Below, piece after piece: positions 3,752 to 57,211 of a DNA stretch of 64,000 nucleotides. Position 1 is the first letter of the stretch. Every line of letters begins with the position of its first letter. Position numbers and translations under genes: made by a program. Under the pieces are notes generated by a model. The model did no database searches, was not told the DNA's origin, and was given only the letters and a program-made list of their open reading frames with translations. The stretch is from Hadesarchaea archaeon (GTDB lineage: Archaea > Hadarchaeota > Hadarchaeia > Hadarchaeales > Hadarchaeaceae). The stretch lies in the NCBI GenBank assembly GCA_029259175.1, contig JAPDJH010000002.1, forward strand, positions 18,733 to 82,732. The letters run 5' to 3'.

Positions 3752-4642
3752 GTGAAACAGATTGGGGAAGCTGATAGAGCAAAAATTACGGTGCTGGTTG
3801 AGGATTACGCTGGGTATGGGGGGTCGCTCTGGGCTGAACACGGTGTCTCGTTTTTGGTGGAGGTCGTGGCCGGGAAAACCTCCAAAACCATTTTGTTCGA
3901 TACGAGCCAGTCCTCGGCTCTAGTCTCCCACAACATGGAAATGCTGGGGATAGAGCCGAAATCGGTGGATCTCATCTTCCTGTCCCACTGTCACTACGAT
4001 CACACCGGAGGCTTGGTTGGAATGCTGAAGAAGATAAAAAAGAGGGAGATCCCGATCATTGCTCATCCGAAGTTGTTCAGGCCCAGCTTTGCTTTAAAAC
4101 CCCGCCGCAGGTGGATAGGGATGACCAAGAAAAACACCAAGGCGAACATAAAGAGGAATGGCGGACTACTGAAACTGACGGATGAACCACTTGAGCTAAT
4201 GACGGGAGTGCTCTCCACCGGGGAGATAAAAAGAACAACTGATTTCGAGAGAAGAGTCACCGTGGGGAGCTACACTATCGAGAAAGGGAAAACCGTAAAG
4301 GATCCGATGAAAGACGACATGTCCTTGGTGGTCAACATCAGAGATAAGGGTCTCTTCATAATCACTGGATGCTCGCATGCCGGGATCGTGAACATAGTCA
4401 AGCACTCGATGGCGGTGAGCGGTATAAAAAAGGTCAAGGCTGTGATTGGCGGCTTACACTTGATAGACGCAAGCGACGATAGGATCAAGAAAACGGTGAA
4501 AAGTTTGAGGGGACTCGGAGTTGAAAAGGTCTACGCGGGGCACTGCACGGGGTTCAAAGCGGAGATGGAGCTTTTCAAAGAGTTCGGGAATAACTTCCAA
4601 AAACTCCGATGTGGAAAAGTGATCGACTCGGATGAAATTTGA
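3752..4642 (+). CDS. MBL-fold metallo-hydrolase (MJ0301-like architecture)
   Basis: Has HCHYDHTGG (HxHxDH) plus later TGCSHAG and GHCTG. It is a paralog of 10848-11495. Confidence 0.8.
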   Translation: MKQIGEADRAKITVLVEDYAGYGGSLWAEHGVSFLVEVVAGKTSKTILFDTSQSSALVSHNMEMLGIEPKSVDLIFLSHCHYDHTGGLVGMLKKIKKREIPIIAHPKLFRPSFALKPRRRWIGMTKKNTKANIKRNGGLLKLTDEPLELMTGVLSTGEIKRTTDFERRVTVGSYTIEKGKTVKDPMKDDMSLVVNIRDKGLFIITGCSHAGIVNIVKHSMAVSGIKKVKAVIGGLHLIDASDDRIKKTVKSLRGLGVEKVYAGHCTGFKAEMELFKEFGNNFQKLRCGKVIDSDEI

Positions 4643-7276: not shown

Positions 7277-7675
7277 CTATTTCTCAGCGGTCTGACTCAA
7301 CTTGCTTGGCCCGTAAATCGCAAGTGATTTGTCATAGAAAGAGAGCATTGCCTCGGGAGTCATCGTAAGCGCTTTCGTTGGACACCTCTCAACACACAAT
7401 CCACAAAAACAACATTTTCCCAAATGGATCTGGGGATATGTTTTGCCGTTAAATTTCACCATTTCGATAGCATTATTGGGGCAGACTCTCGAACACATTC
7501 CACAGCCCACACATTTTTCTAAATTTAAGAAATGTCTTCCTCTATAGTCCTTTACGGGTTCTAAAGATTCGCTAGGAAATTTCAGAGTCATCGGCTTTTT
7601 AAAGAGTATTCTAAAAATCACTTTGGCAGGTTTAATCAAACCCATGACGGACTTCAACAAATTCATTTCGATCAC
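7277..7675 (-). CDS. NuoI / hydrogenase 2x[4Fe-4S] subunit-like protein
   Basis: Two intact motifs, CVGCGMCSRVCP and CCFCGLCVERCP. It overlaps the upstream gene by 4 nt. Confidence 0.85.
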   Translation of the reverse strand: MIEMNLLKSVMGLIKPAKVIFRILFKKPMTLKFPSESLEPVKDYRGRHFLNLEKCVGCGMCSRVCPNNAIEMVKFNGKTYPQIHLGKCCFCGLCVERCPTKALTMTPEAMLSFYDKSLAIYGPSKLSQTAEK

Positions 7676-9225
7676 CTATCCATATCGCTCGGGCAGGGAT
7701 CTAAACTCCAGTATATTGCGGGAATGTCAGCCACTTGGGCCCCCTTGGCCAAGTATGAAAATGTCATTAATGTGTGAGAAAAACTCGGTCCCCGCACCTT
7801 TACTCGATATGGTTTGTCAGTTTCGTTGCCCACCATGTAAAAGCATGCCTCTCCCCTTGCAGCCTCGAGGCAAAAACGGGCGTCTCTTTTTGGGATCTTG
7901 CGCGGAAGCTGTTTTCTCGTTTCTCCCTTGGGTATTTTTTCCAACAATTGTTTAATGATCGAAATGCTTTCAGCGATCTCCCCTCTTCTGCACAAAACTC
8001 TGGCGTAGGAGTCCCCTTTCGTTTGTGTCACAATTTCAAAATCGACTTCCGGATATGCCTCGTAGGGTTCATCTTTTCTTATATCGGACTTTACTCCGCT
8101 TGCTCTCAGGTTGGGACCCGTAGTGCCCAGCTCTACGGCTTTTTTGGCGTCGAGTACACCCACACCTTCCGTTCTTTTGATGACCGTGGCATTTTTGAAA
8201 AACAAATCATCATAAAAAACCAGTTTCTTTTGCAAATGGTTGAGCACTCTCGAAATTTTTTCTTCAAATCCTTCAGGGAAATCCCTTCTCACACCCCCAG
8301 GAACAAAATGGCATGGATAAATTCTTCCTCCGGATGCGATCTCGATCAAACGGATAATTTTTTCCCTGTCCCCCCAAGCGATTCTATTCGCGCTCTCAAA
8401 ACCCAAAGCAAACGACATCATCCCTATCCAAGTTATGTGGCTCAGGATTCTTCCGAGCTCCGTCATGATGGTCCGTATGAACTTCGCCCTTTCAGGTGCT
8501 TCGACTCCCGCAATCTTTTCAGCCACGTTAGCATATCCCAGTTCGTAGGAGTAGGGCTCTAGAACACATATCCTGTCAACAAGCATGGCATTTTGTTCAT
8601 GGGTTCTGTATTCCATTAGCTTCTCTATTCCCCGATGGAGGTATCCAGGGTATAGCATCAGCCCGGTCACTTCTTCGCCCGCGCAGTCGATCAAAGCCCG
8701 AAAATGGCCCGAAGCTGGGTGTTGGGGACCAAAAGGCAAGAGAAAGCAGCCTCCCTCTTTTTGTTCGCTGCTGCTTTCATCATAATATTCTCTCTTCACG
8801 TATTCGCGCGTGTCGAAATCCTTTCTCAGCGGGGGAATTTCTTTCCAATCTTCGAGAAAAAGGGGAGAGGGATCCGGATGCTCTTCAAAATTTACTCCAA
8901 ACAGTTCACATATTTCTCTTTCGTGTATCTGTGCTCCCTCCCATATATTAGAGACCGACTCTATCGATGGCGATTCTCTTGGAAGCCTAATCTTGACAAC
9001 CTTCCTACATTTTTTTGCGTGCGACCAGAGGTGATAAAGTATTTCAAACTCTCTTTCATCGGGATAATCCACGCAAGTAACATCTGAAAGATGATCAAAC
9101 CCAGCATCCTTGAGCTGAGATAAAACTTTGCGGAGCTCTTCTTTTTTTACTGAGATGGTTGCGTTTTCTAGGAGCGCTCGAGGCGTCGATCCCTGGAACC
9201 CGGGCTTCAATTCTTCGCTGTTCAT
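7672..9225 (-). CDS. Fused NuoC-NuoD / group-4 [NiFe]-hydrogenase large-subunit-like protein with only half of the Ni-Fe Cys ligands
   Basis: The NuoC part has DHLSDVTCVDYP...HEREICELFG. The NuoD part has PFGPQHPASGHFR and GYLHRGIEK. RICVLEPYS replaces RICGICS, and C-terminal DPCPSDMDR replaces DPCxxCxxR. Confidence 0.85.
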   Translation of the reverse strand: MNSEELKPGFQGSTPRALLENATISVKKEELRKVLSQLKDAGFDHLSDVTCVDYPDEREFEILYHLWSHAKKCRKVVKIRLPRESPSIESVSNIWEGAQIHEREICELFGVNFEEHPDPSPLFLEDWKEIPPLRKDFDTREYVKREYYDESSSEQKEGGCFLLPFGPQHPASGHFRALIDCAGEEVTGLMLYPGYLHRGIEKLMEYRTHEQNAMLVDRICVLEPYSYELGYANVAEKIAGVEAPERAKFIRTIMTELGRILSHITWIGMMSFALGFESANRIAWGDREKIIRLIEIASGGRIYPCHFVPGGVRRDFPEGFEEKISRVLNHLQKKLVFYDDLFFKNATVIKRTEGVGVLDAKKAVELGTTGPNLRASGVKSDIRKDEPYEAYPEVDFEIVTQTKGDSYARVLCRRGEIAESISIIKQLLEKIPKGETRKQLPRKIPKRDARFCLEAARGEACFYMVGNETDKPYRVKVRGPSFSHTLMTFSYLAKGAQVADIPAIYWSLDPCPSDMDR

Positions 9226-9847: not shown

Positions 9848-10387
9848 TTACGCTGGCCACACGTGTCCGTGGCAGTGATCGATTGGAAAGGGGAAGCTGA
9901 AAACGATGATCGTGTTGATATTATCAATAGTCCCCGCCCACGAGAGTTCCCTTTCGGACTTGGTGAAGTCGTAGATGAGATCCAATCCATGAGCATTCAG
10001 AAACCAGAGGAGATCGTATGAGTTTTCCGCATATTCCTTGCCGTGAACATCGCATCTCAAAGTCGTCGTCTTGTTTTCCTCATCGAACTCAACGCTGAAG
10101 TTATCGGCAACCACATTGTATTTCTTGTTAAATTGCTCAATTTGGGCGGATTGGAAGCCACTTTGGTTTTCCATGATTTGGGAGAATTGATTTTCATCCC
10201 AGAAGAGAGTTTCCTGATAATGCAGAACCGGTCCATCCGCGACTATCTCGATGTATCTCTCTACGGCGTTTTCTCCCTGCCAAAGTGGGACTGGCTTTCG
10301 TTGGGCAACCCACCAAGCAGAAACACTGATGAGAACAACGCAGATCACTGCAACGATGATAATTTTTCCAGCCATTTTCACTTTCAC
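9848..10387 (-). CDS. Hypothetical protein with N-terminal transmembrane anchor and C-terminal HCHGH motif
   Basis: N-terminus MKVKMAGKIIIVAVICVVLISVSAWWV, C-terminus ...FSFPFPIDHCHGHVWPA. I recognise no family. Confidence 0.6.
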   Translation of the reverse strand: MKVKMAGKIIIVAVICVVLISVSAWWVAQRKPVPLWQGENAVERYIEIVADGPVLHYQETLFWDENQFSQIMENQSGFQSAQIEQFNKKYNVVADNFSVEFDEENKTTTLRCDVHGKEYAENSYDLLWFLNAHGLDLIYDFTKSERELSWAGTIDNINTIIVFSFPFPIDHCHGHVWPA

Positions 10388-10851
10388 ACCTTCCCTTCCA
10401 GCCAGCCAATTCTGACATTGTCCTTCTGGTCAAACTTTGGAACGTATGGTTTGATGTCCAAAAGAGGAGTACCATCAAGCATATCAACGCCTTTCACCTT
10501 GAGGATATTTCCTTCACGCTTTAGTAGCTCCACAATCGTGAGCCCTATTGGGTTTGGCCTGTTAGGGGATCTCGTGGCGAAAACCCCATGAAGAGCATCG
10601 TCTAGGTAAGGTTTTACCAAAAGTCCCAGCGAATCCAAGCGGTGTTCTTTTTTCACAGAGTGCTTCACCGGTTTATGGAACTCGTACAGGATTATGAGGT
10701 GAGAAAAGCCTTCTATGTCTTTCAGCCCCTCCTCATATTCCTTGAAAACCTCGATCTCCCCAATTTCCTCTGACACGTAGGCTTGATGGGGTGCCTCTCC
10801 GTCCTTTTTGTATGGCGTGTGGATTATTCCTATTGGCTTTAGTTTTATCAT
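10384..10851 (-). CDS. trmO: tRNA methyltransferase TrmO (YaeB/UPF0066 family)
   Basis: Has MIKLKPIGIIHTPY, ATRSPNRPNPIG and DGTPLLDIKPY. The ATG at 10851 overlaps the upstream stop (ATGA). Confidence 0.85.
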   Translation of the reverse strand: MIKLKPIGIIHTPYKKDGEAPHQAYVSEEIGEIEVFKEYEEGLKDIEGFSHLIILYEFHKPVKHSVKKEHRLDSLGLLVKPYLDDALHGVFATRSPNRPNPIGLTIVELLKREGNILKVKGVDMLDGTPLLDIKPYVPKFDQKDNVRIGWLEGKV

Positions 10852-11495
10852 TCTACCACAAGCCCTGCCCCACACCTCACGTATTGTTTCGGGAATGCGC
10901 GCGCCAACTCCTTTTTGTATACAGTGCAGTGGCAGGGAGAAATCAACCTAAGGCCCTTTAGAGCGTCGAAATCGCTGAACCCGTGAAAGCCTCCAACGAT
11001 ACCGTATATCTTGCCAATTTTTGATGCTGCGTTTAGGATGCTGCGCACTCCCGGATGAGAGCAGCCCGTGATCACAAACGCGCCTCTTTTGTCCAGACAA
11101 ATCAACGACTGCTCTTTAGTGTATGCGCCCAACTCACCTGTCGTGAATATCTCCTTGCGTATCTGTGTTGGCCCACGGACTTCAACCAACCTCGTTTTTG
11201 CTGGGATCTCGTTTTTTAACCACCTAGAAAACGATGCCAAGGCGTACACGGTAAGATTTGGGTTCACCTCAAGTAGCTCCGATAGCCCACCGGTGTGATC
11301 CCCATGCCCGTGCGACAATACGACAGATTTTATGTTGCTCGGATCTATGCCCAATTTTTCCATGTTATGCAATAAGGCCACACCATCGCCACCCGTGTCG
11401 AACAAGGTGTCGTTGTCGATTAAACAGGAGAAACCCCAGCCCGCTATTAGTCCTTTCTTTAACACTTCATTGTCATAAACCACTGTTATTTTCAT
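10848..11495 (-). CDS. MBL-fold metallo-hydrolase (paralog of 3752-4642)
   Basis: Has SHGHGDHTGG and TGCSHPG. I take the start at MKITVVYDN. Confidence 0.8.
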   Translation of the reverse strand: MKITVVYDNEVLKKGLIAGWGFSCLIDNDTLFDTGGDGVALLHNMEKLGIDPSNIKSVVLSHGHGDHTGGLSELLEVNPNLTVYALASFSRWLKNEIPAKTRLVEVRGPTQIRKEIFTTGELGAYTKEQSLICLDKRGAFVITGCSHPGVRSILNAASKIGKIYGIVGGFHGFSDFDALKGLRLISPCHCTVYKKELARAFPKQYVRCGAGLVVE

Positions 11496-11585
11496 CAGTA
11501 CCAGCTTCCGATTGGGAATCTTCTGTAATTTAATGAGCACAGTTAAGTTTATATGTAATTATGTGCATATGCTAATAATGGAGGA

Positions 11586-12074
11586 ATGGAAGAGATGGCT
11601 TACGGTCAAGGGGGTTGGAGAAGGGGAAGAAGAAACATGTATTACCTCACAGGCATGCCGGGATGGATGAGGTTTGGATATCCCCCGTGGTGGATGGGCG
11701 GTCCAGCAGGAACGCCGGCCGCCCAACCTCTGGTGCAGGCTGGGCAGATACCACAACCTTACTCGACGCAAGCACCAGCCCAAGGTTCGGTTCCCTCTCA
11801 CGAGAACTGCGCCAATTACAGGGATGGATTCTGCACGTTATATGGCATCCCTATAGATCCCAACACTCCTGTGTGTCCAAACTTTACGCCGAAGAATATC
11901 TCTTCAACACCACCAATGCCATCAACCTCACCCTCGTTCCAAGTCCCTGTTGGTTTTCCTCAAGCACAAATGTCCAAAGACCAAGAAGTCCAGATGTTGG
12001 AAAGTCAGGCGAGAATGGTGGAGCAACAGCTCGAGCTGATCAAGAAAAGGCTTGAAGAACTCAAAAGGAGGTGA
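11586..12074 (+). CDS. DUF5320-family protein
   Basis: The N-terminus is Gly/Pro/aromatic-rich (GWRRGRRNMYYLTGMPGWMRFGYPPWWMG). The tail is a coiled coil, DQEVQMLESQARMVEQQLELIKKRLEELKRR. Confidence 0.7.
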   Translation: MEEMAYGQGGWRRGRRNMYYLTGMPGWMRFGYPPWWMGGPAGTPAAQPLVQAGQIPQPYSTQAPAQGSVPSHENCANYRDGFCTLYGIPIDPNTPVCPNFTPKNISSTPPMPSTSPSFQVPVGFPQAQMSKDQEVQMLESQARMVEQQLELIKKRLEELKRR

Positions 12075-12079
12075 GATAG

Positions 12080-12496
12080 ATGCCGTTTGGAATGGGCCCC
12101 TATGGCTGGATGGGAATGTACGGGTATCCATACTGGGGGTGGAGATGCAGGTGGTTCCCGTGGTTGCCCAGATGGTGGTGGACTGGAATATACGGTCCCA
12201 TCACACCTTTCACGGGAGCACCATGGATGCCTTACAGCTCATATAGCTCCTACGCTCTAACGACTACACCATGGACAGCCTTCTATGCGCCCTACTACGC
12301 ATCCTCCTACAGCCCGTATGCACCGCCAATCGCGGCAATGCCGAACGTGGCGTACCCGTTCCCATATCTAGCCGGTGCAGAGGCTCCCCAAATTCCGAGG
12401 GAACAGGAAATAGAGATGCTCGAGAGCCAAGCAGCAGCGCTCCAGCAGCAATTGGATCAGATCAAGAAGAGGCTTGAGGAGCTCGGCAGAATATAG
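12080..12496 (+). CDS. DUF5320-family protein, extremely Trp/Tyr/Pro-rich variant
   Basis: N-terminus MPFGMGPYGWMGMYGYPYWGWRCRWFPWLPRWWWTGIYGP, tail EQEIEMLESQAAALQQQLDQIKKRLEELGRI. Confidence 0.7.
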   Translation: MPFGMGPYGWMGMYGYPYWGWRCRWFPWLPRWWWTGIYGPITPFTGAPWMPYSSYSSYALTTTPWTAFYAPYYASSYSPYAPPIAAMPNVAYPFPYLAGAEAPQIPREQEIEMLESQAAALQQQLDQIKKRLEELGRI

Positions 12497-49786: not shown

Positions 49787-51334
49787 GTGTCCAGTATACT
49801 CGTGAAGCGCATCCGTTTGAGACTTAGACCCCTGGACATGGAAACCGGCCGCCACATAGTAGTGCTCCACGAGCGGGACTCCCAGCAGCTGGGCCACATG
49901 CCGGGAAGCCGGATCAGGATAGGAGCCAATGGAAGAGAGTACGTGATGATCGCCAACGTTAGCGGTCGTTTGGTCGAACCCGGGGAGCTGGGCACGTTCA
50001 TTGAGGCCACAGAGATTCTGGGATTGAAGCAGGGAGCGGAAGTGGAGGTCTCGCTTGCTCCGCAACCCGCTTCCATTTCAGCGATAAAGAAGAAGTTGCG
50101 CGGGGAAAGCCTCTCCGCCGAGGAAATTGGAACTATCGTCCGCGATATTGTTTCCAACAATCTTACGACTACCGAGCTAACGGCTTTTATCGTTGCACAG
50201 TACACCCGTGGAATGTCGATGGAGGAAATAGTTGCTCTAACACGGCACATGGTAGAAACCGGCGAGAAACTGGAGTTCGACACGAAACCCATTCTGGACG
50301 TCCACAGCATCGGCGGCGTTCCCGGAAACAAGTATGCCCTGCTGACCGTGCCCATTGTTTCAGCCGCCGGACTCAAAGTGCCGAAGACCAGCAGCAGGGC
50401 CATTACGAGCGCTGCGGGCACGGCGGATGTGATGGAGGTCTTGGCCCCCGTGGATCTGTCGCTGGAGGAAATCAAGCGAATAGTGAATCGTGTAGGGGCA
50501 GTGCTCGCGTGGGGGGGCGCCGTGCGACTTGCCCCCGCAGACGATATAATAATTCAGGTTGAACGCCATCTCGGCATAGACCCTCGTTGCCAGCTCTTGG
50601 CTAGCGTCATGTCCAAAAAATTGGCCGTGGGTGCTGATCGGGTCGTCATCGACATCCCCACAGGTCTCGGGGCCAAAGTCTGTACGCGCGAAGAAGCCCG
50701 CGAGCTTGCCCACGACTTCATCGAGCTGGCCCGACGCGTGGACGTGCAGATGGAGGTGGCGGTGACCTATGGCGGACAGCCCGTGGGCTACGCCGTGGGT
50801 CCAGCTCTCGAAGCAAAGGAAGCCCTCGAGGCGTTAAAAGGAGAGGGCCCGGGAAGTCTGATTGAGAAGGCCACGAGCCTCGCAGGCTTGATGCTTGAAC
50901 TCGGCGAGGTGGCCCCACCCGGGCTGGGCAAGCAAATGGCCAAGGACATCTTGAGATCAGGACGTGCTCTGGAGCAGTTGCGAAAAATTATCGAGGCCCA
51001 GGGCGGGGATCCAAAGATCGATTCAGGTGATCTCCCGATAGGACAGTACAAGCAAGTGATAGAATCTCCAGCCTCCGGATATGTGAAACGCGTCTACAAT
51101 GAGCGCATCAACGCCATAGCCCGAGCCGCTGGAGCGCCCATTGACAAAGGCGCAGGTGTTCGCATTCTCCTAAAAGAGGGGCGGAAGGTGGAACGCGGAG
51201 AACCTCTAGTAGAAATCTATGCCGAGCACGAGAACAAACTCGATGAGGCGATCGCGGTTGCCAAGCAAAACTTCCCGGTTCTGATCGAGGGGATGCTTTT
51301 GGAAAAACTCGCGCACCGCCCGCACCTAGAATGA
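49787..51334 (+). CDS. AMP phosphorylase (archaeal thymidine-phosphorylase-family enzyme with N-terminal extension)
   Basis: Has an N-terminal about 85-aa extension, then DVHSIGGVPGNK, TSSRAITSAAGTAD and SKKLA. Confidence 0.85.
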   Translation: MSSILVKRIRLRLRPLDMETGRHIVVLHERDSQQLGHMPGSRIRIGANGREYVMIANVSGRLVEPGELGTFIEATEILGLKQGAEVEVSLAPQPASISAIKKKLRGESLSAEEIGTIVRDIVSNNLTTTELTAFIVAQYTRGMSMEEIVALTRHMVETGEKLEFDTKPILDVHSIGGVPGNKYALLTVPIVSAAGLKVPKTSSRAITSAAGTADVMEVLAPVDLSLEEIKRIVNRVGAVLAWGGAVRLAPADDIIIQVERHLGIDPRCQLLASVMSKKLAVGADRVVIDIPTGLGAKVCTREEARELAHDFIELARRVDVQMEVAVTYGGQPVGYAVGPALEAKEALEALKGEGPGSLIEKATSLAGLMLELGEVAPPGLGKQMAKDILRSGRALEQLRKIIEAQGGDPKIDSGDLPIGQYKQVIESPASGYVKRVYNERINAIARAAGAPIDKGAGVRILLKEGRKVERGEPLVEIYAEHENKLDEAIAVAKQNFPVLIEGMLLEKLAHRPHLE

Positions 51335-53589: not shown

Positions 53590-56043
53590 TTACGCTTGTT
53601 TTATTTCTGCGACTATCCTTCTCGCCGCTCTTTCTGGATTGCTGGTGTTGTATATCGCGCTCCCGGCTATACAGATATCTGCACCGGCCCTCACAACCTC
53701 TTTTGCCACACCCTCTTTGATGCCGCCAGCGACGGCCAGCAGGAAGGGCCGGCACCGCTTTTTCGCTTCAGCGATGAGCGTGGTAGAATCGTAGATCCCT
53801 CTCCCCCTGAGTTGCTCGCTTATTCCTCGGTGCAGGCAGAATATCACGTGGTTTTCCCTTCCCTCAAATTGTCTGGCGAGTTCTTCTATCAAGGCGATCG
53901 GGTCGGGACAATCGATGAAGTCGATGAGTATCGCTCTGTTCCACCTGATCGCCTCGCTGAGAGCTTCGAATATTTTGGTTCGTCCTCCGATGCCTAGAAC
54001 GGCCGCTATGTCGGCTCCGGCCCTGAACGCGATCTTGGCCTCCAGATTTCCAACATCCATGGTTTTCAGATCCGCGACTATCAGCGCGTCTGGAGCCACC
54101 TTGCGGAGTTCTGGAATCAGACGATCGGTTCCGTGGCGTTTGAGGGCGGGCGTTCCCGCTTCAACGATTTGAGCTCCGCCGCGATAAGCCGCGCGTGCTA
54201 TCCTGACCACGGTTTTCAAATCCGCGTCTAGATCGAGGGCCACCTGAAGCGCCGGGCATCTGAGACGTTCGATTGGAGTGATCCCCACCGGAATCTCTTT
54301 TGCCCGCTTGGGTGTCTTTAACTTGAGCATTCTGCTCGGCACACCTCTCTTGCCCCATCCTCTGAGCTTGTAGTATCTTTGAAGCATTTGAGTGAGATCG
54401 AGCCCGAACTCCGCGGGTAGACGATCTTGGGCTGGTTCGAATCCCTCTCGCACGTTGAATCTCCGCTCTACGTCGTAGATACGCGCTCCCACCTCTCTCA
54501 GGTGTTTTTCCGTCCACATGACTCCAGTCAAAGCAGTGAGGAGCTCCGCGAAATCGTAGAGTTCGAAGTCCAAGGTGGAGAAGAGCGCCAGCGAATGATA
54601 TTTGCACACGACCAGAGAATCGTAAACTGCCGACGCGTCTTGCAGTCGCTTCACCAGCTCGGGCTTGCCGTCTTCCGTTTGTGGATCCACGAACTCCGGA
54701 TGGCCTAGAATCTCGGGGTCTATCGTGTACGCCCGCAGATGACATCCGCCGCGATTCGAAGTGGCGTAGGCGAGCGCTATTCCCTTTGCACCGCGGGGGT
54801 CATAAGCCGGGAGTTCTAGCTTTTTGCAATGAGGAACGAAGACCTTCAGCTTGAGCTTCTTTGCTGCTGCGACGGTTCCGAGAGAAAACGGAGACTTGCC
54901 GCGCCCGATGTCGTTCACCAGCCGAACCGCATCTTCAAAATTTCTGCAAATTCCAGCCTTCCTCGCCACTCCGAGCGCAACACCCATCGATATGGTGTCG
55001 AGCCCCAGTTCATCGCAGATGGCGCTGAGCTTGGCAATCTGCTGGTAATCGAAGAAGCCGGCGTTGGGCCCAAGCATGACGATGCTTTCATATTCCGGTC
55101 CCTTTCCTTCCCAATTCTTGACCCGCACCCAGCGCCCGCAGCCAGTGGGACAGCCGAAGCAGGCGATTTTTTTGACCAGGTATCGTTCGCGCACCGTTTC
55201 GCCTGAGAACGGATCCACATCTTCGAAGCTCAGTTCCTTTCCGGAAAAATTCCAGGCTGGCAGCAATCCGCCCGCTGTGATGCGGTGGACGAGCATCGCG
55301 GTTCCGAAGCGAGCCAGGGTGCCATCTGTTCCCGTTATCGGATTGGTTTCTATGACTTTTCGCACCCGAGTGAGAATTTTCTGAAATTCGGGTGGATGAG
55401 CCACAGGCACGCGCTTGGTACCCCGCACGACAACGGCTTTGAGGTTTTTGGAACCCATCACGGCTCCCCCTCCGCATCGCCCGGCCACCCCCATCCGCCC
55501 TTCCCGGTTTCCCGTGACTACACACGCCATTCGGGCTAGGTTTTCACCTGCTGGTCCAATGGTTGCGATAGAGAACTGCGGGTAACGGTCAAGCAGCTCC
55601 TCGATGGTCTCCAAAGTCGACTTGCCCCAGAGTTCCGTGGCGTCGTGTAGGGTGACTTTGTCGTCATCGATTTCAATATAGACCGGTTTTTTGCTTCTTC
55701 CCTGAACGATCAGCCCGTCGAAACCCGCCCGTTTGAGCCAAGCTCCGAAGAAGCCGCCCATGGACGAATCAGCTATGGTACCCGTTAGCGGGGACTTGAA
55801 AACCACAGCTGTTCGTCCGCTTCCGGGAAAGGGTGTTCCGGTCAGCGGGCCCGTCATGAAAATCAAGCGATTAGCGGGTCCGAGTGGACCGGTTCCTCGT
55901 TTTAGCTCACGGTAAAGAATCCATGCGCCGTACCCTCTGCCACCCAAAAAATTGAACGCGATTTTCGGATCGAGCAGTTCCGTGTTTATGGTTCCTGAAT
56001 TCAAATCCACTCTCAGGAGTTTCCCGGCATAGCCACCCTTCAT
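53590..56043 (-). CDS. Fusion protein: aldehyde:ferredoxin oxidoreductase (AOR) family domain + 3-hexulose-6-phosphate synthase-like (OMPDC-fold) domain
   Basis: Residues 1 to about 600 have YAGKLLRVDLNSG, IGPAGENL, GSKNLKAVVV, CFGCPTGCGRW, GLDTIS and NRGGCHLRAY. Residues about 610-817 have LQVALDL, VEAGTP, ADLKTMDVG, AVAGGI and IAGSAIY. It is a single uninterrupted frame. Confidence 0.9.
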   Translation of the reverse strand: MKGGYAGKLLRVDLNSGTINTELLDPKIAFNFLGGRGYGAWILYRELKRGTGPLGPANRLIFMTGPLTGTPFPGSGRTAVVFKSPLTGTIADSSMGGFFGAWLKRAGFDGLIVQGRSKKPVYIEIDDDKVTLHDATELWGKSTLETIEELLDRYPQFSIATIGPAGENLARMACVVTGNREGRMGVAGRCGGGAVMGSKNLKAVVVRGTKRVPVAHPPEFQKILTRVRKVIETNPITGTDGTLARFGTAMLVHRITAGGLLPAWNFSGKELSFEDVDPFSGETVRERYLVKKIACFGCPTGCGRWVRVKNWEGKGPEYESIVMLGPNAGFFDYQQIAKLSAICDELGLDTISMGVALGVARKAGICRNFEDAVRLVNDIGRGKSPFSLGTVAAAKKLKLKVFVPHCKKLELPAYDPRGAKGIALAYATSNRGGCHLRAYTIDPEILGHPEFVDPQTEDGKPELVKRLQDASAVYDSLVVCKYHSLALFSTLDFELYDFAELLTALTGVMWTEKHLREVGARIYDVERRFNVREGFEPAQDRLPAEFGLDLTQMLQRYYKLRGWGKRGVPSRMLKLKTPKRAKEIPVGITPIERLRCPALQVALDLDADLKTVVRIARAAYRGGAQIVEAGTPALKRHGTDRLIPELRKVAPDALIVADLKTMDVGNLEAKIAFRAGADIAAVLGIGGRTKIFEALSEAIRWNRAILIDFIDCPDPIALIEELARQFEGRENHVIFCLHRGISEQLRGRGIYDSTTLIAEAKKRCRPFLLAVAGGIKEGVAKEVVRAGADICIAGSAIYNTSNPERAARRIVAEIKQA

Positions 56044-56110: not shown

Positions 56111-57211
56111 GTGGAGGAATTTTTGAGAAAAGCGCGAGTTCTTCTTCGCGAAACCAAGCGGGTGTTCGCTGATTGCGCGACCAAGAGTGGCGGGATCCTG
56201 GCAGCCAATCCAGCCAAGCCGTATTATCCGAGAGGGGCTGCGAACTACGGGTATGTGTGGGTACGGGACGCGTCTTTTGTTTGTGTCGCTGCGGACGTGT
56301 TGGAGTTGGGAATTCAGGAAAAGTTCTTTGAGTGGTGCATGCGGGCTGAGCGCTTTCCGGGAACCACACTCTTTTGTCGCCGCTATCACCCGGATGGAAC
56401 GGCTCTGGCCGCGGGCGAGGGCCTCGGAGGCGAAATCGAGAACCAGCTCCAGCCGGATCAGGCGGGGGCCCTGTTGTGGGCGCTGTGGCACCACTTCAGG
56501 GAGGATCCGTCAGAGGCGAGGGACTTCCGGCCGCTGATTCGCGAAGTTGCGGATGGGTTGTGCGAACTCTGGAAAAAGAACAGGTTTGACATGGTGGTGT
56601 TCGATGTGTGGGAGGAGCAGGCTGCCTTTCCAGACCTCGATGAGTTTTTTTCTTACACACTCGCGGCCTGTGCTGGTGGTCTCAGATATGCAGGCGCTCT
56701 GTTTCCGAATCCGCGCTGGCAAAAAACAGCGGATCAAATGGTCTCGGTTTTAAGAAGAACTCCCGGAAAGCGGTTTTTCCGAAGTTATGGGCGGATACCC
56801 GATCCGGAGGTGGACGCCTCTCTGCTTGGGTTGGTGTTCCCGTTTGAGGTTTTCTCACATGCTCATCCGAAAATCCGAAGGACGATTGCCGATATCGAGA
56901 AGGAGCTAGTGATCGGCGGAGGGCTTCATCGCTACCCCGGCGATAGATACGATGGCTGGGTGTACGAGGGAAAGATGTTGAGGCAGAAGGGCGGGGGCGC
57001 GTGGCCGCTGCTCAACTTTTGGCTGAGCGTGTGCCACGCGCGGGCAGGGAACAAGAGGAGGGCTCTTCGGTATGCGCGGTGGGTGCTTCGGCGCGTGAAC
57101 AGACACATTCCGGAGCAGATTTTCCCTAATCGGTTGCAGGTTTCTCCATCTCCTCTGGCTTGGGCGCACGCCATGTTTGTGCTGGCCATGCGAGAACTCA
57201 GGATCGTGTGA
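56111..57211 (+). CDS. Glycoside hydrolase family 15-like (glucoamylase catalytic-domain-only) protein
   Basis: Has YGYVWVRDASF, QLQPDQAG, FDVWEE and LHRYPGDRYDG. Confidence 0.75.
   Translation: MEEFLRKARVLLRETKRVFADCATKSGGILAANPAKPYYPRGAANYGYVWVRDASFVCVAADVLELGIQEKFFEWCMRAERFPGTTLFCRRYHPDGTALAAGEGLGGEIENQLQPDQAGALLWALWHHFREDPSEARDFRPLIREVADGLCELWKKNRFDMVVFDVWEEQAAFPDLDEFFSYTLAACAGGLRYAGALFPNPRWQKTADQMVSVLRRTPGKRFFRSYGRIPDPEVDASLLGLVFPFEVFSHAHPKIRRTIADIEKELVIGGGLHRYPGDRYDGWVYEGKMLRQKGGGAWPLLNFWLSVCHARAGNKRRALRYARWVLRRVNRHIPEQIFPNRLQVSPSPLAWAHAMFVLAMRELRIV

Follow-up and report, generated by a model that had tools for sequence, protein, structure and literature searches.

Archaea generally make ribulose-5-phosphate by running the ribulose monophosphate (RuMP) pathway in reverse, with HPS (3-hexulose-6-phosphate synthase) and PHI working backwards, and most of them lack the classical pentose-phosphate pathway. 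The route releases toxic formaldehyde, which methanogens handle with a Fae-HPS fusion; to our knowledge, its fate in non-methanogenic archaea has so far only been guessed at. A gene in a 64,000-nucleotide stretch of DNA from a Hadesarchaea archaeon (contig JAPDJH010000002.1; the whole stretch is referred to below as the window) raises the question of whether an aldehyde:ferredoxin oxidoreductase (AOR) may serve there instead. The first-pass annotation of the window had read this gene as an AOR-family protein fused to an HPS-like domain, and had proposed that hexulose-6-phosphate cleavage is thereby coupled to ferredoxin-dependent formaldehyde oxidation. Comparative sequence evidence supports that proposal. 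We consider it probable, though by no means certain, that the fusion is a bifunctional reverse-RuMP enzyme that would cleave hexulose-6-phosphate to ribulose-5-phosphate and formaldehyde, and would oxidise the formaldehyde in situ to formate with reduction of ferredoxin.

Domain architecture and conserved residues

The gene lies at 53590..56043 on the minus strand, which the first-pass annotation had left unstated, and forms the single unbroken open reading frame (ORF) claimed for it, with an ATG start, 817 codons and a stop codon at 53590-53592. All of the motifs quoted for it (CFGCPTGCGRW, GSKNLKAVVV, NRGGCHLRAY, KLKTPKRAKEIPVGITPIERL, LQVALDL, VEAGTP, ADLKTMDVG, AVAGGI and AGSAIY) are present in the translation. 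Three Pfam domains, all encoded on the minus strand, bear out the described combination of an AOR with an HPS fold. AFOR_N (PF02730) covers residues 7-209 (55417..56025; 270 bits, E 1e-80, gathering cut-off 29.8), and AFOR_C, comprising AOR domains 2 and 3 (PF01314), covers residues 223-571 (54331..55377; 312 bits, E 8e-93, cut-off 27). The HPS-like domain of the OMPDC fold occupies residues 598-817 (53593..54252), with the OMPdecase match (PF00215) spanning 598-810 (88 bits, E 1e-24). Each of these scores far exceeds its gathering threshold, which excludes a chance match. The two parts are joined by a basic inter-domain linker of 26 residues (572-597; 54253..54330, minus strand; MLKLKTPKRAKEIPVGITPIERLRCP), the region of lowest column conservation; the HPS domain begins at nucleotide 54252, in agreement with the junction estimated previously at ~54,200-54,260.

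The AOR half aligns end to end with AORs of solved structure, most strongly with the catalytic subunit of an electron-bifurcating AOR (9mqx_D, 424 bits), followed by P. furiosus AOR (1aor, 403), C. autoethanogenum AOR (9g7j, 392), 8c0z (346) and P. furiosus FOR (1b25, 299). The alignments to 9mqx, 1aor and 9g7j begin at residue 4. When aligned with 1aor, C295, C298, C302 and C480 correspond to the [4Fe-4S] ligands C288, C291, C295 and C494 of P. furiosus AOR, with C295-C302 making up the CFGCPTGC motif (C-x2-C-x3-C; 55138..55161, minus strand). E319 and H435 align with the active-site residues E313 and H448, and the pterin motifs appear as CDELGLD (D344/D349) and D475. C295, C298, C302, C480, E317, E319, H435, D349 and D475 are invariant among 85 fused homologues. 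The AlphaFold model has the three-domain AOR fold, and in Foldseek matches 9mqx, 9g7j, 1aor, 8c0z and 1b25 with TMt of 0.85-0.89 and rmsd of 1.9-2.6 Å. Judged by sequence, the N-terminal part is an AOR-family catalytic module in which all cofactor and catalytic residues are intact. It shares fold, Fe-S ligands, pterin motifs and the catalytic Glu and His with the tungsten-containing enzymes 1aor, 9g7j, 9mqx_D and 1b25 at 35-42% identity; all four lack an additional catalytic domain. Membership of the FOR subfamily was rejected, given the 299 bits of 1b25 against 424, 403 and 392 for 9mqx, 1aor and 9g7j; identity to 1b25 is 35%, compared with 39-42% to the other AORs.

The C-terminal domain had been called HPS-like, and profile scoring places it with HPS rather than KGPDC or PyrF. 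HPS models of NCBIfam gave 137-146 bits (137 for TIGR03128, 142-146 for models of HPS fusions; the highest score, 146, came from the HPS-MenG/RraA-like model NF005442), against 60 for KGPDC and 46 for PyrF. Its sequence matches in the PDB were HPS 9lj9 (114 bits) and M. gastri HPS 3ajx (101 bits), with KGPDC at 32 bits, and the HPS-PHI structure 9lj9 was also the best solved-structure match (34% identity, rmsd 2.2 Å). Residues were mapped by alignment with 3ajx, 9lj9 and E. coli UlaD, the sequence of the last being confirmed as identical to 1kv8_A. The UlaD catalytic and Mg positions D11, E33, D62, K64, D67 and H136 correspond to D604, E628, D658, K660, D663 and H738, each conserved in 85/85 homologues, and the D658-x-K660-x-x-D663 pattern is present, D663 being supplied to the HPS active site by the partner subunit. 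At the positions that mark the change from KGPDC to HPS specificity (E112D/R139V/T169A, taken from the PDB titles of 1xbx/1xbz, with V, L or I counted as the HPS state at the second) the domain is in the HPS state, with D708 in 85/85, I741 (81 Ile, 4 Val) and A772 in 85/85. A KGPDC or PyrF identity was rejected on the model scores together with the residues at these catalytic and specificity positions. When the HPS domain alone was searched against 1.84 billion representatives, a separate subgroup (group I) stood out at 182-268 bits, divided by a gap from ordinary HPS (≤133 bits); group-I domains have a small insertion ahead of the catalytic His. The C-terminal domain is best described, from these comparisons, as a divergent HPS-type sequence.

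For the full chain the AlphaFold model has a pLDDT of 93.4 and a pTM of 0.89. The linker is mostly ordered (mean pLDDT of 79-94 in 10-residue blocks over residues 571-600). The model predicts a defined inter-domain geometry, since a whole-chain pTM of 0.89 exceeds what would be expected for a freely floating 220-residue HPS domain. The top whole-chain match among solved structures covers the AOR part alone (TMq 0.66), and Foldseek found the AOR-HPS fusion in no solved structure.

Genuineness, distribution and evolution of the fusion

The first-pass annotation had asked whether the junction might be an artefact. It is genuine, because the identical 817-aa protein occurs on three contigs, including ENA ERZ25515360 (200 kb) and Logan SRR22064147 (17 kb), and because an alignment of 85 homologues (42-76% identity) spans the junction unbroken. 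A search of 5.8 billion proteins returned more than 100 clusters (90% identity) with the same three-domain architecture, drawn from JGI, ENA, NCBI and Logan, with lengths of 800-840 aa and identities of 41-76%. According to named sources and genome records, the fusion occurs in Hadarchaeota, Bathyarchaeia, Nezhaarchaeales, Methanomethylicales/Methanosuratincola (Methanomethylicia), 'Thermoprotei', Aenigmatarchaeota and, within the Asgard archaea, Hodarchaeota and Promethearchaeota. A profile scan of genome contigs with the family alignment had at least eight fused loci among the matches listed, most of which were unfused AORs; such a scan is unsuited to counting the fusion or mapping its distribution.

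The earlier suggestion that this architecture is undescribed stands in one respect and fails in another. No description of an AOR-HPS fusion was found in the full-text literature searched, which lacks most subscription-journal papers, so that this absence is not proof. The architecture itself, on the other hand, is common, and its members go under the generic names 'aldehyde:ferredoxin oxidoreductase', 'OMP decarboxylase/HUMPS family' as well as '3-hexulose-6-phosphate synthase'. The domain families and other HPS-partner fusions (Fae-HPS, HPS-PHI and HPS-MenG-like) are known; the AOR-HPS combination is apparently undescribed.

Mean column conservation among the homologues is 0.63-0.66 in the AOR domains and 0.61 in the HPS domain, falling to 0.37 in the linker. 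Across 84 homologues, identity to the window protein in the AOR half correlates with that in the HPS half at r = 0.94. A neighbour-joining tree (without support values) groups every fused AOR domain in a single clade that excludes 9mqx and 20 unfused AORs; those outside the clade include unfused AORs from the same lineages (L020, L023 and L086), Hadarchaeia itself among these lineages. Two subgroups of fusion can be distinguished, a Hadarchaeia type with a basic linker of ~30 residues, to which the window protein belongs, and a TACK/Asgard type with a linker of 19 residues. The fusion thus appears from its sequences to be one evolutionary unit of single origin, with co-evolving halves.

Several variants depart from the standard layout. 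At one locus (L093, 6001-8523) the AOR gene ends at an in-frame TGA and a GTG-started 277-aa HPS gene follows directly (junction 7687-7692), its product sharing 51% identity with residues 567-816 of the window protein. Two explanations would fit, fission of the gene with translational coupling or read-through of the TGA. Four clusters have the split form (P0062, P0063, P0064 and P0073), three of them ending ...RGWI and P0063 ending ...RGGWIG, and the split variant nests within the Hadarchaeia-type clade. In four other proteins of 600-666 aa (P0244, P0246, P0247 and P0248) the HPS domain is intact, with invariant catalytic residues, and the preceding ~380 residues have no Pfam match. A plain HMM search of these N-terminal regions against the AOR profile gave no match either, whereas profile-profile comparison (hhalign) of the regions alone aligned them to that profile over 345 columns with a probability of 93.8% and E 1.7e-7 (reversed control, E 0.74). 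They retain the four Fe-S cysteines and have lost the catalytic Glu and His and the pterin-motif segments, a pattern that identifies them as probable eroded AOR relics still fused to HPS in some lineages. Additional HPS domains also occur: P0251 (992 aa) has AFOR_N, AFOR_C and two HPS domains, an Aenigmatarchaeota locus (L022, 362-3346) likewise has two HPS matches after the AOR part, and in P0249 (968 aa) a SIS/PHI domain comes after three HPS-like stretches.

Some records carry anomalies of their own. In a Hadarchaeota metagenome-assembled genome (MAG) the fusion gene (L008, 9992-12480) is frameshifted within the HPS domain, giving ORFs at 9992-12031 and 12001-12480; either a pseudogene or an assembly error would account for this. 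A Hadarchaeia-type fusion 65% identical to the window protein (P0010) is labelled Hodarchaeota/Hodarchaeaceae (Asgard) by NCBI, as is a Hadarchaeota-like thermosome 77% identical to that of the window (P0168), which suggests faulty binning or labelling of a MAG, or else lateral transfer.

Proposed function and its alternatives

How might such a protein work? A separately encoded PHI would supply D-arabino-3-hexulose-6-phosphate from fructose-6-phosphate, the C-terminal HPS domain would split it into ribulose-5-phosphate and formaldehyde, and the tungsto/molybdopterin [4Fe-4S] AOR module would oxidise the formaldehyde to formate, passing two electrons to ferredoxin (Fd). The net reaction would be fructose-6-phosphate + H2O + 2 Fd(ox) -> ribulose-5-phosphate + formate + 2 Fd(red), and the reduced ferredoxin could then be used, for example, by a group-4 hydrogenase-like module encoded elsewhere in the window. 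The HPS equilibrium favours condensation and characterised AOR and FOR enzymes have poor affinity for formaldehyde. A fused, possibly channelled arrangement would help to pull the unfavourable cleavage; it would also keep free formaldehyde low. We infer formaldehyde as the AOR substrate, and likewise the direction of flux, channelling, ferredoxin as acceptor and energy conservation. A separate AOR has been proposed as a sink for RuMP formaldehyde in metagenome papers (PMC8065059; PMC9723716).

We favour this reading because the HPS-type residues and those of the AOR active site are conserved together, identities in the two halves rise and fall together, the fused AORs form one clade, the genes still abut where they are split, and PHI-like genes adjoin the fusion in some relatives. 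The first-pass annotation had recommended a search for PHI; the window itself has none, while in three relatives, representing two phyla, the fusion has a PHI-like gene as its immediate neighbour. In two Asgard loci the order is fusion, MoaD-family gene, and a PHI-like gene with two tandem SIS domains, for which 6-phospho-3-hexuloisomerase is the best-scoring family (L089 and L092; TIGR03127 143 and 131 bits), with PFK and glycogen phosphorylase also nearby. In a Hadarchaeia MAG (L007) it is type III RuBisCO (3' end of the gene), fusion, and a tandem PHI-like gene (TIGR03127 122 bits). These tandem genes (L007 3235-4434; L089 4626-5771; L092 8599-9768) encode proteins of 381-399 aa with two PHI-like SIS domains. 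PHI activity in M. hungatei requires two PHI paralogues together (Kono et al., PMC5241800), and by analogy the tandem genes may be fused PHI-a and PHI-b. The Hodarchaeota locus L089 also has a separate 218-aa HPS-like gene (3964-4620) between the MoaD and PHI genes; it scores best (147 bits) against the HPS portion of Fae-HPS and shares only ~24-29% identity with the fused HPS domains.

The closest parallel is Fae-HPS, found in methanogens and their relatives (NF009833). There too HPS is fused to a formaldehyde-disposing enzyme of reverse-RuMP pentose synthesis, with the partner N-terminal, and the rationale would be shared, since Fae in that fusion 'might immediately capture formaldehyde' (PMC5241800). 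The partner here, however, is a W/Mo-pterin Fe-S oxidoreductase of ~575 residues instead of the small Fae, and where Fae-HPS condenses formaldehyde on tetrahydromethanopterin the AOR is presumed to oxidise it irreversibly to formate with ferredoxin. The Pfam scan found no Fae domain, and NF009833, whose cut-off is 274 bits, is matched by the HPS half only, with 140-142 bits at model positions 155-381. HPS-PHI of Thermococcales and others (NF041755; PDB 9lj9) similarly joins an archaeal HPS to a neighbouring pathway enzyme, but one that handles the C6 substrate, whereas the AOR would handle the C1 product and PHI is a separate tandem two-SIS gene, adjacent in some relatives only. No SIS/PHI domain was found in the window protein by the Pfam scan, and NF041755 is matched at model positions 4-210 only (139-143 bits against a cut-off of 500). 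A further natural HPS fusion, with a MenG/RraA-like partner (NF005442; Mhun0647 in PMC5241800), involves an unrelated domain; the Pfam scan found no RraA/MenG domain here.

Several observations weigh against the proposed function. Genes for PHI, Fae and formate handling were not found within the 64-kb window, and where PFK and PHI adjoin the fusion they are equally compatible with formaldehyde assimilation. Because the AOR half has its closest relatives among broad-specificity AORs and stands further from FOR, its clade gives no indication of formaldehyde specificity, and the TIGR03128 score of the HPS half, 137, is below the equivalog cut-off of 200. In addition, some relatives keep an intact HPS on an AOR relic devoid of the catalytic Glu and His and the pterin motifs. 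HPS function is therefore not strictly dependent on the chemistry of the AOR, and the N-terminal region may serve structurally as well.

The likeliest alternative is that the halves are catalytically independent: the AOR half would oxidise fermentation aldehydes from 2-oxoacid metabolism, and fusion would serve dimerisation, stability or co-expression with no hand-over of formaldehyde. Aldehyde oxidation is the role commonly assumed for AOR in peptide fermenters, and the gene content of the window, with indolepyruvate:ferredoxin oxidoreductase (IOR)-like subunits, an ADP-forming acetyl-CoA synthetase and a glutamate dehydrogenase, is that of such an organism. Affinity with broad-specificity AORs fits this role, and the persistence of an eroded, probably non-catalytic AOR on HPS argues for a structural contribution. 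We nevertheless think independence unlikely. The fused AOR clade is distinct from unfused AORs of the same lineages, the halves co-evolve tightly and the split genes have stayed abutting; the partner, moreover, is precisely the aldehyde-releasing enzyme of the RuMP pathway, and the confidently predicted fixed geometry exceeds the needs of a tether.

The assembly could also run the other way. Low-potential reduced ferredoxin, from oxidation of CO, H2 or 2-oxoacids, would then drive reduction of formate to formaldehyde in the AOR half, and the HPS half would condense this with ribulose-5-phosphate to hexulose-6-phosphate, assimilating formate into sugar. Fusion would be even more useful in this direction, with free formaldehyde held extremely low, and the PHI and PFK encoded next to it in the Asgard loci would also catalyse the steps that come next in an assimilatory RuMP cycle. 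Ferredoxin-driven formate reduction is, however, thermodynamically uphill under standard conditions, and a formate transporter, FDH or CO dehydrogenase was not seen adjoining the fusion in any locus; for these two reasons we rate this direction as improbable. HPS and PHI are themselves reversible (Kono et al., PMC5241800), and AOR-family enzymes have been discussed as interconverting acids and aldehydes (PMC9723716). Against this, the neighbourhoods are of housekeeping or carbohydrate/pentose type, as expected for anabolic pentose supply, and among the carriers are heterotrophs whose accepted route to pentoses is reverse RuMP (PMC5241800; PMC10547907). In Hadarchaeia, a formate-assimilating module might work with the type III RuBisCO and the pentose-bisphosphate genes found close by. 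If true, this direction would constitute a new natural route of formate assimilation in subsurface archaea (Hadarchaeota, Bathyarchaeia and Asgard). We know of a ferredoxin-dependent formate-to-hexose route otherwise only as a synthetic-biology design.

It is very improbable that the C-terminal domain falls outside true HPS and is instead a related aldolase or decarboxylase of the OMPDC suprafamily with a different phosphosugar as its substrate, the AOR half then working on some other aldehyde or acid product such as glycolaldehyde or a sugar-acid phosphate. The sub-threshold equivalog score would be explained, as would the standing of group I as a distinct subgroup with its insertion ahead of the catalytic His, but the metal, catalytic and specificity residues are all of HPS type in the 85 homologues, the top structure and sequence matches are bona fide HPS, and PHI-like genes adjoin the fusion in three loci. 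An assembly or frameshift artefact joining two genes, for which the natural split form and the frameshifted L008 copy might be cited, can be dismissed on the sequence data in view of the three contigs with an identical protein, the many clusters from four sources, the continuous frame and a linker that aligns across homologues.

If the preferred reading, reverse-RuMP cleavage coupled to formaldehyde oxidation, is right, the fusion would define an equivalent of the oxidative pentose-phosphate pathway that is linked to ferredoxin and produces formate. Like glucose-6-phosphate dehydrogenase and 6-phosphogluconate dehydrogenase together, it would convert a hexose phosphate to ribulose-5-phosphate, a C1 product and two reducing equivalents; the enzymes are unrelated, however, and here the C1 would leave as formate instead of CO2 and the electrons would go to ferredoxin instead of NADP+, so that the likeness is a functional analogy. 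The occurrence of the fusion in at least six archaeal phyla or classes, with a single origin, co-evolving halves and a PHI-like gene adjoining in some loci, provides strong comparative evidence for the conjecture that an AOR oxidises RuMP formaldehyde. It also corrects annotation: pipelines label such genes simply as AOR, OMP decarboxylase or HPS, and the AOR-HPS link is consequently missing from metabolic reconstructions for Hadarchaeota, Bathyarchaeia, Nezhaarchaeales, Methanomethylicia and Asgard archaea. One carrier genus, Methanosuratincola, now has a cultured isolate.

Neighbouring genes in the window and in related loci

Wherever the flanks of a TACK/Asgard-type locus are long enough (8/8 loci), a MoaD/SAMP-family gene (92-95 aa) directly adjoins the fusion; in the Hadarchaeia-type loci, including the window, it does so in 0/6. 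It lies upstream and divergent in L009, L010, L011, L012, L088 and L090, and downstream in L089 and L092; such a neighbour is in line with expectation for a pterin enzyme. Neither a MoaD gene nor a second HPS was found within the 64-kb window.

Genes of the pentose-bisphosphate/nucleoside-monophosphate (NMP) shunt show the opposite distribution, occurring ≤10 kb from the fusion in 4/6 Hadarchaeia-type loci and in none of the TACK/Asgard type. They are AMP phosphorylase in the window and, in relatives, RuBisCO III, an e2b2/MtnA-family isomerase and a ribose-1-P-kinase-like gene, located at 49787-51334 (+) in the window, 7-387, 7648-8685 and 8688-9653 in L007, 960-2261 in L008 and 7280-8296 in L087. 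The arrangement is operon-like in L007 only, where RuBisCO III abuts the fusion, PHI follows, and the e2b2/MtnA-family isomerase and ribose-1-P-kinase-like genes lie within 7 kb; in L008 RuBisCO III is ~7.7 kb off behind housekeeping genes. No PRK was found near the fusion in the loci with pentose-bisphosphate genes. The neighbourhood resembles, by analogy, the scheme of Kono et al. (2017) that combines the RHP (reductive hexulose-phosphate) pathway with the pentose-bisphosphate pathway, with AOR taking the place of Fae. We rejected the RuBisCO/RHP link as part of the mechanism and keep it as a loose association, given the distance in L008 and the missing PRK. The AMP phosphorylase of the window (49787..51334, plus strand, position by tblastn; TIGR03327 688 bits, cut-off 535) is two genes from the fusion and is likewise only loosely associated with it; we give it as context only.

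Divergently upstream of the fusion in the window is a GH15-like gene of 366 aa (56111-57211, plus strand), a weak match related to oligosaccharide amylase/trehalase, which has the same divergent arrangement in a second assembly (L002). Thermosome and arginine decarboxylase genes lie downstream. The named sequences that best match the thermosome, at 75-79% identity, all come from Hadarchaeota (Hadarchaeum, Hadarchaeales, Hadesarchaea), with the single exception of P0168, labelled 'Hodarchaeaceae'. Further away, the regions at ~7.6-9.3 kb (ORF 7672-9225, minus strand) and ~35.3-37.3 kb encode the group-4 [NiFe]-hydrogenase-like module, with a fused Complex1 30-kDa/49-kDa subunit, a small subunit and two ferredoxin-like genes, together with the IOR-like subunits and ADP-forming acetyl-CoA synthetase. 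These genes would be plausible sinks and sources of reduced ferredoxin, and the gene content of the window as a whole fits an anaerobic, ferredoxin-based heterotroph.

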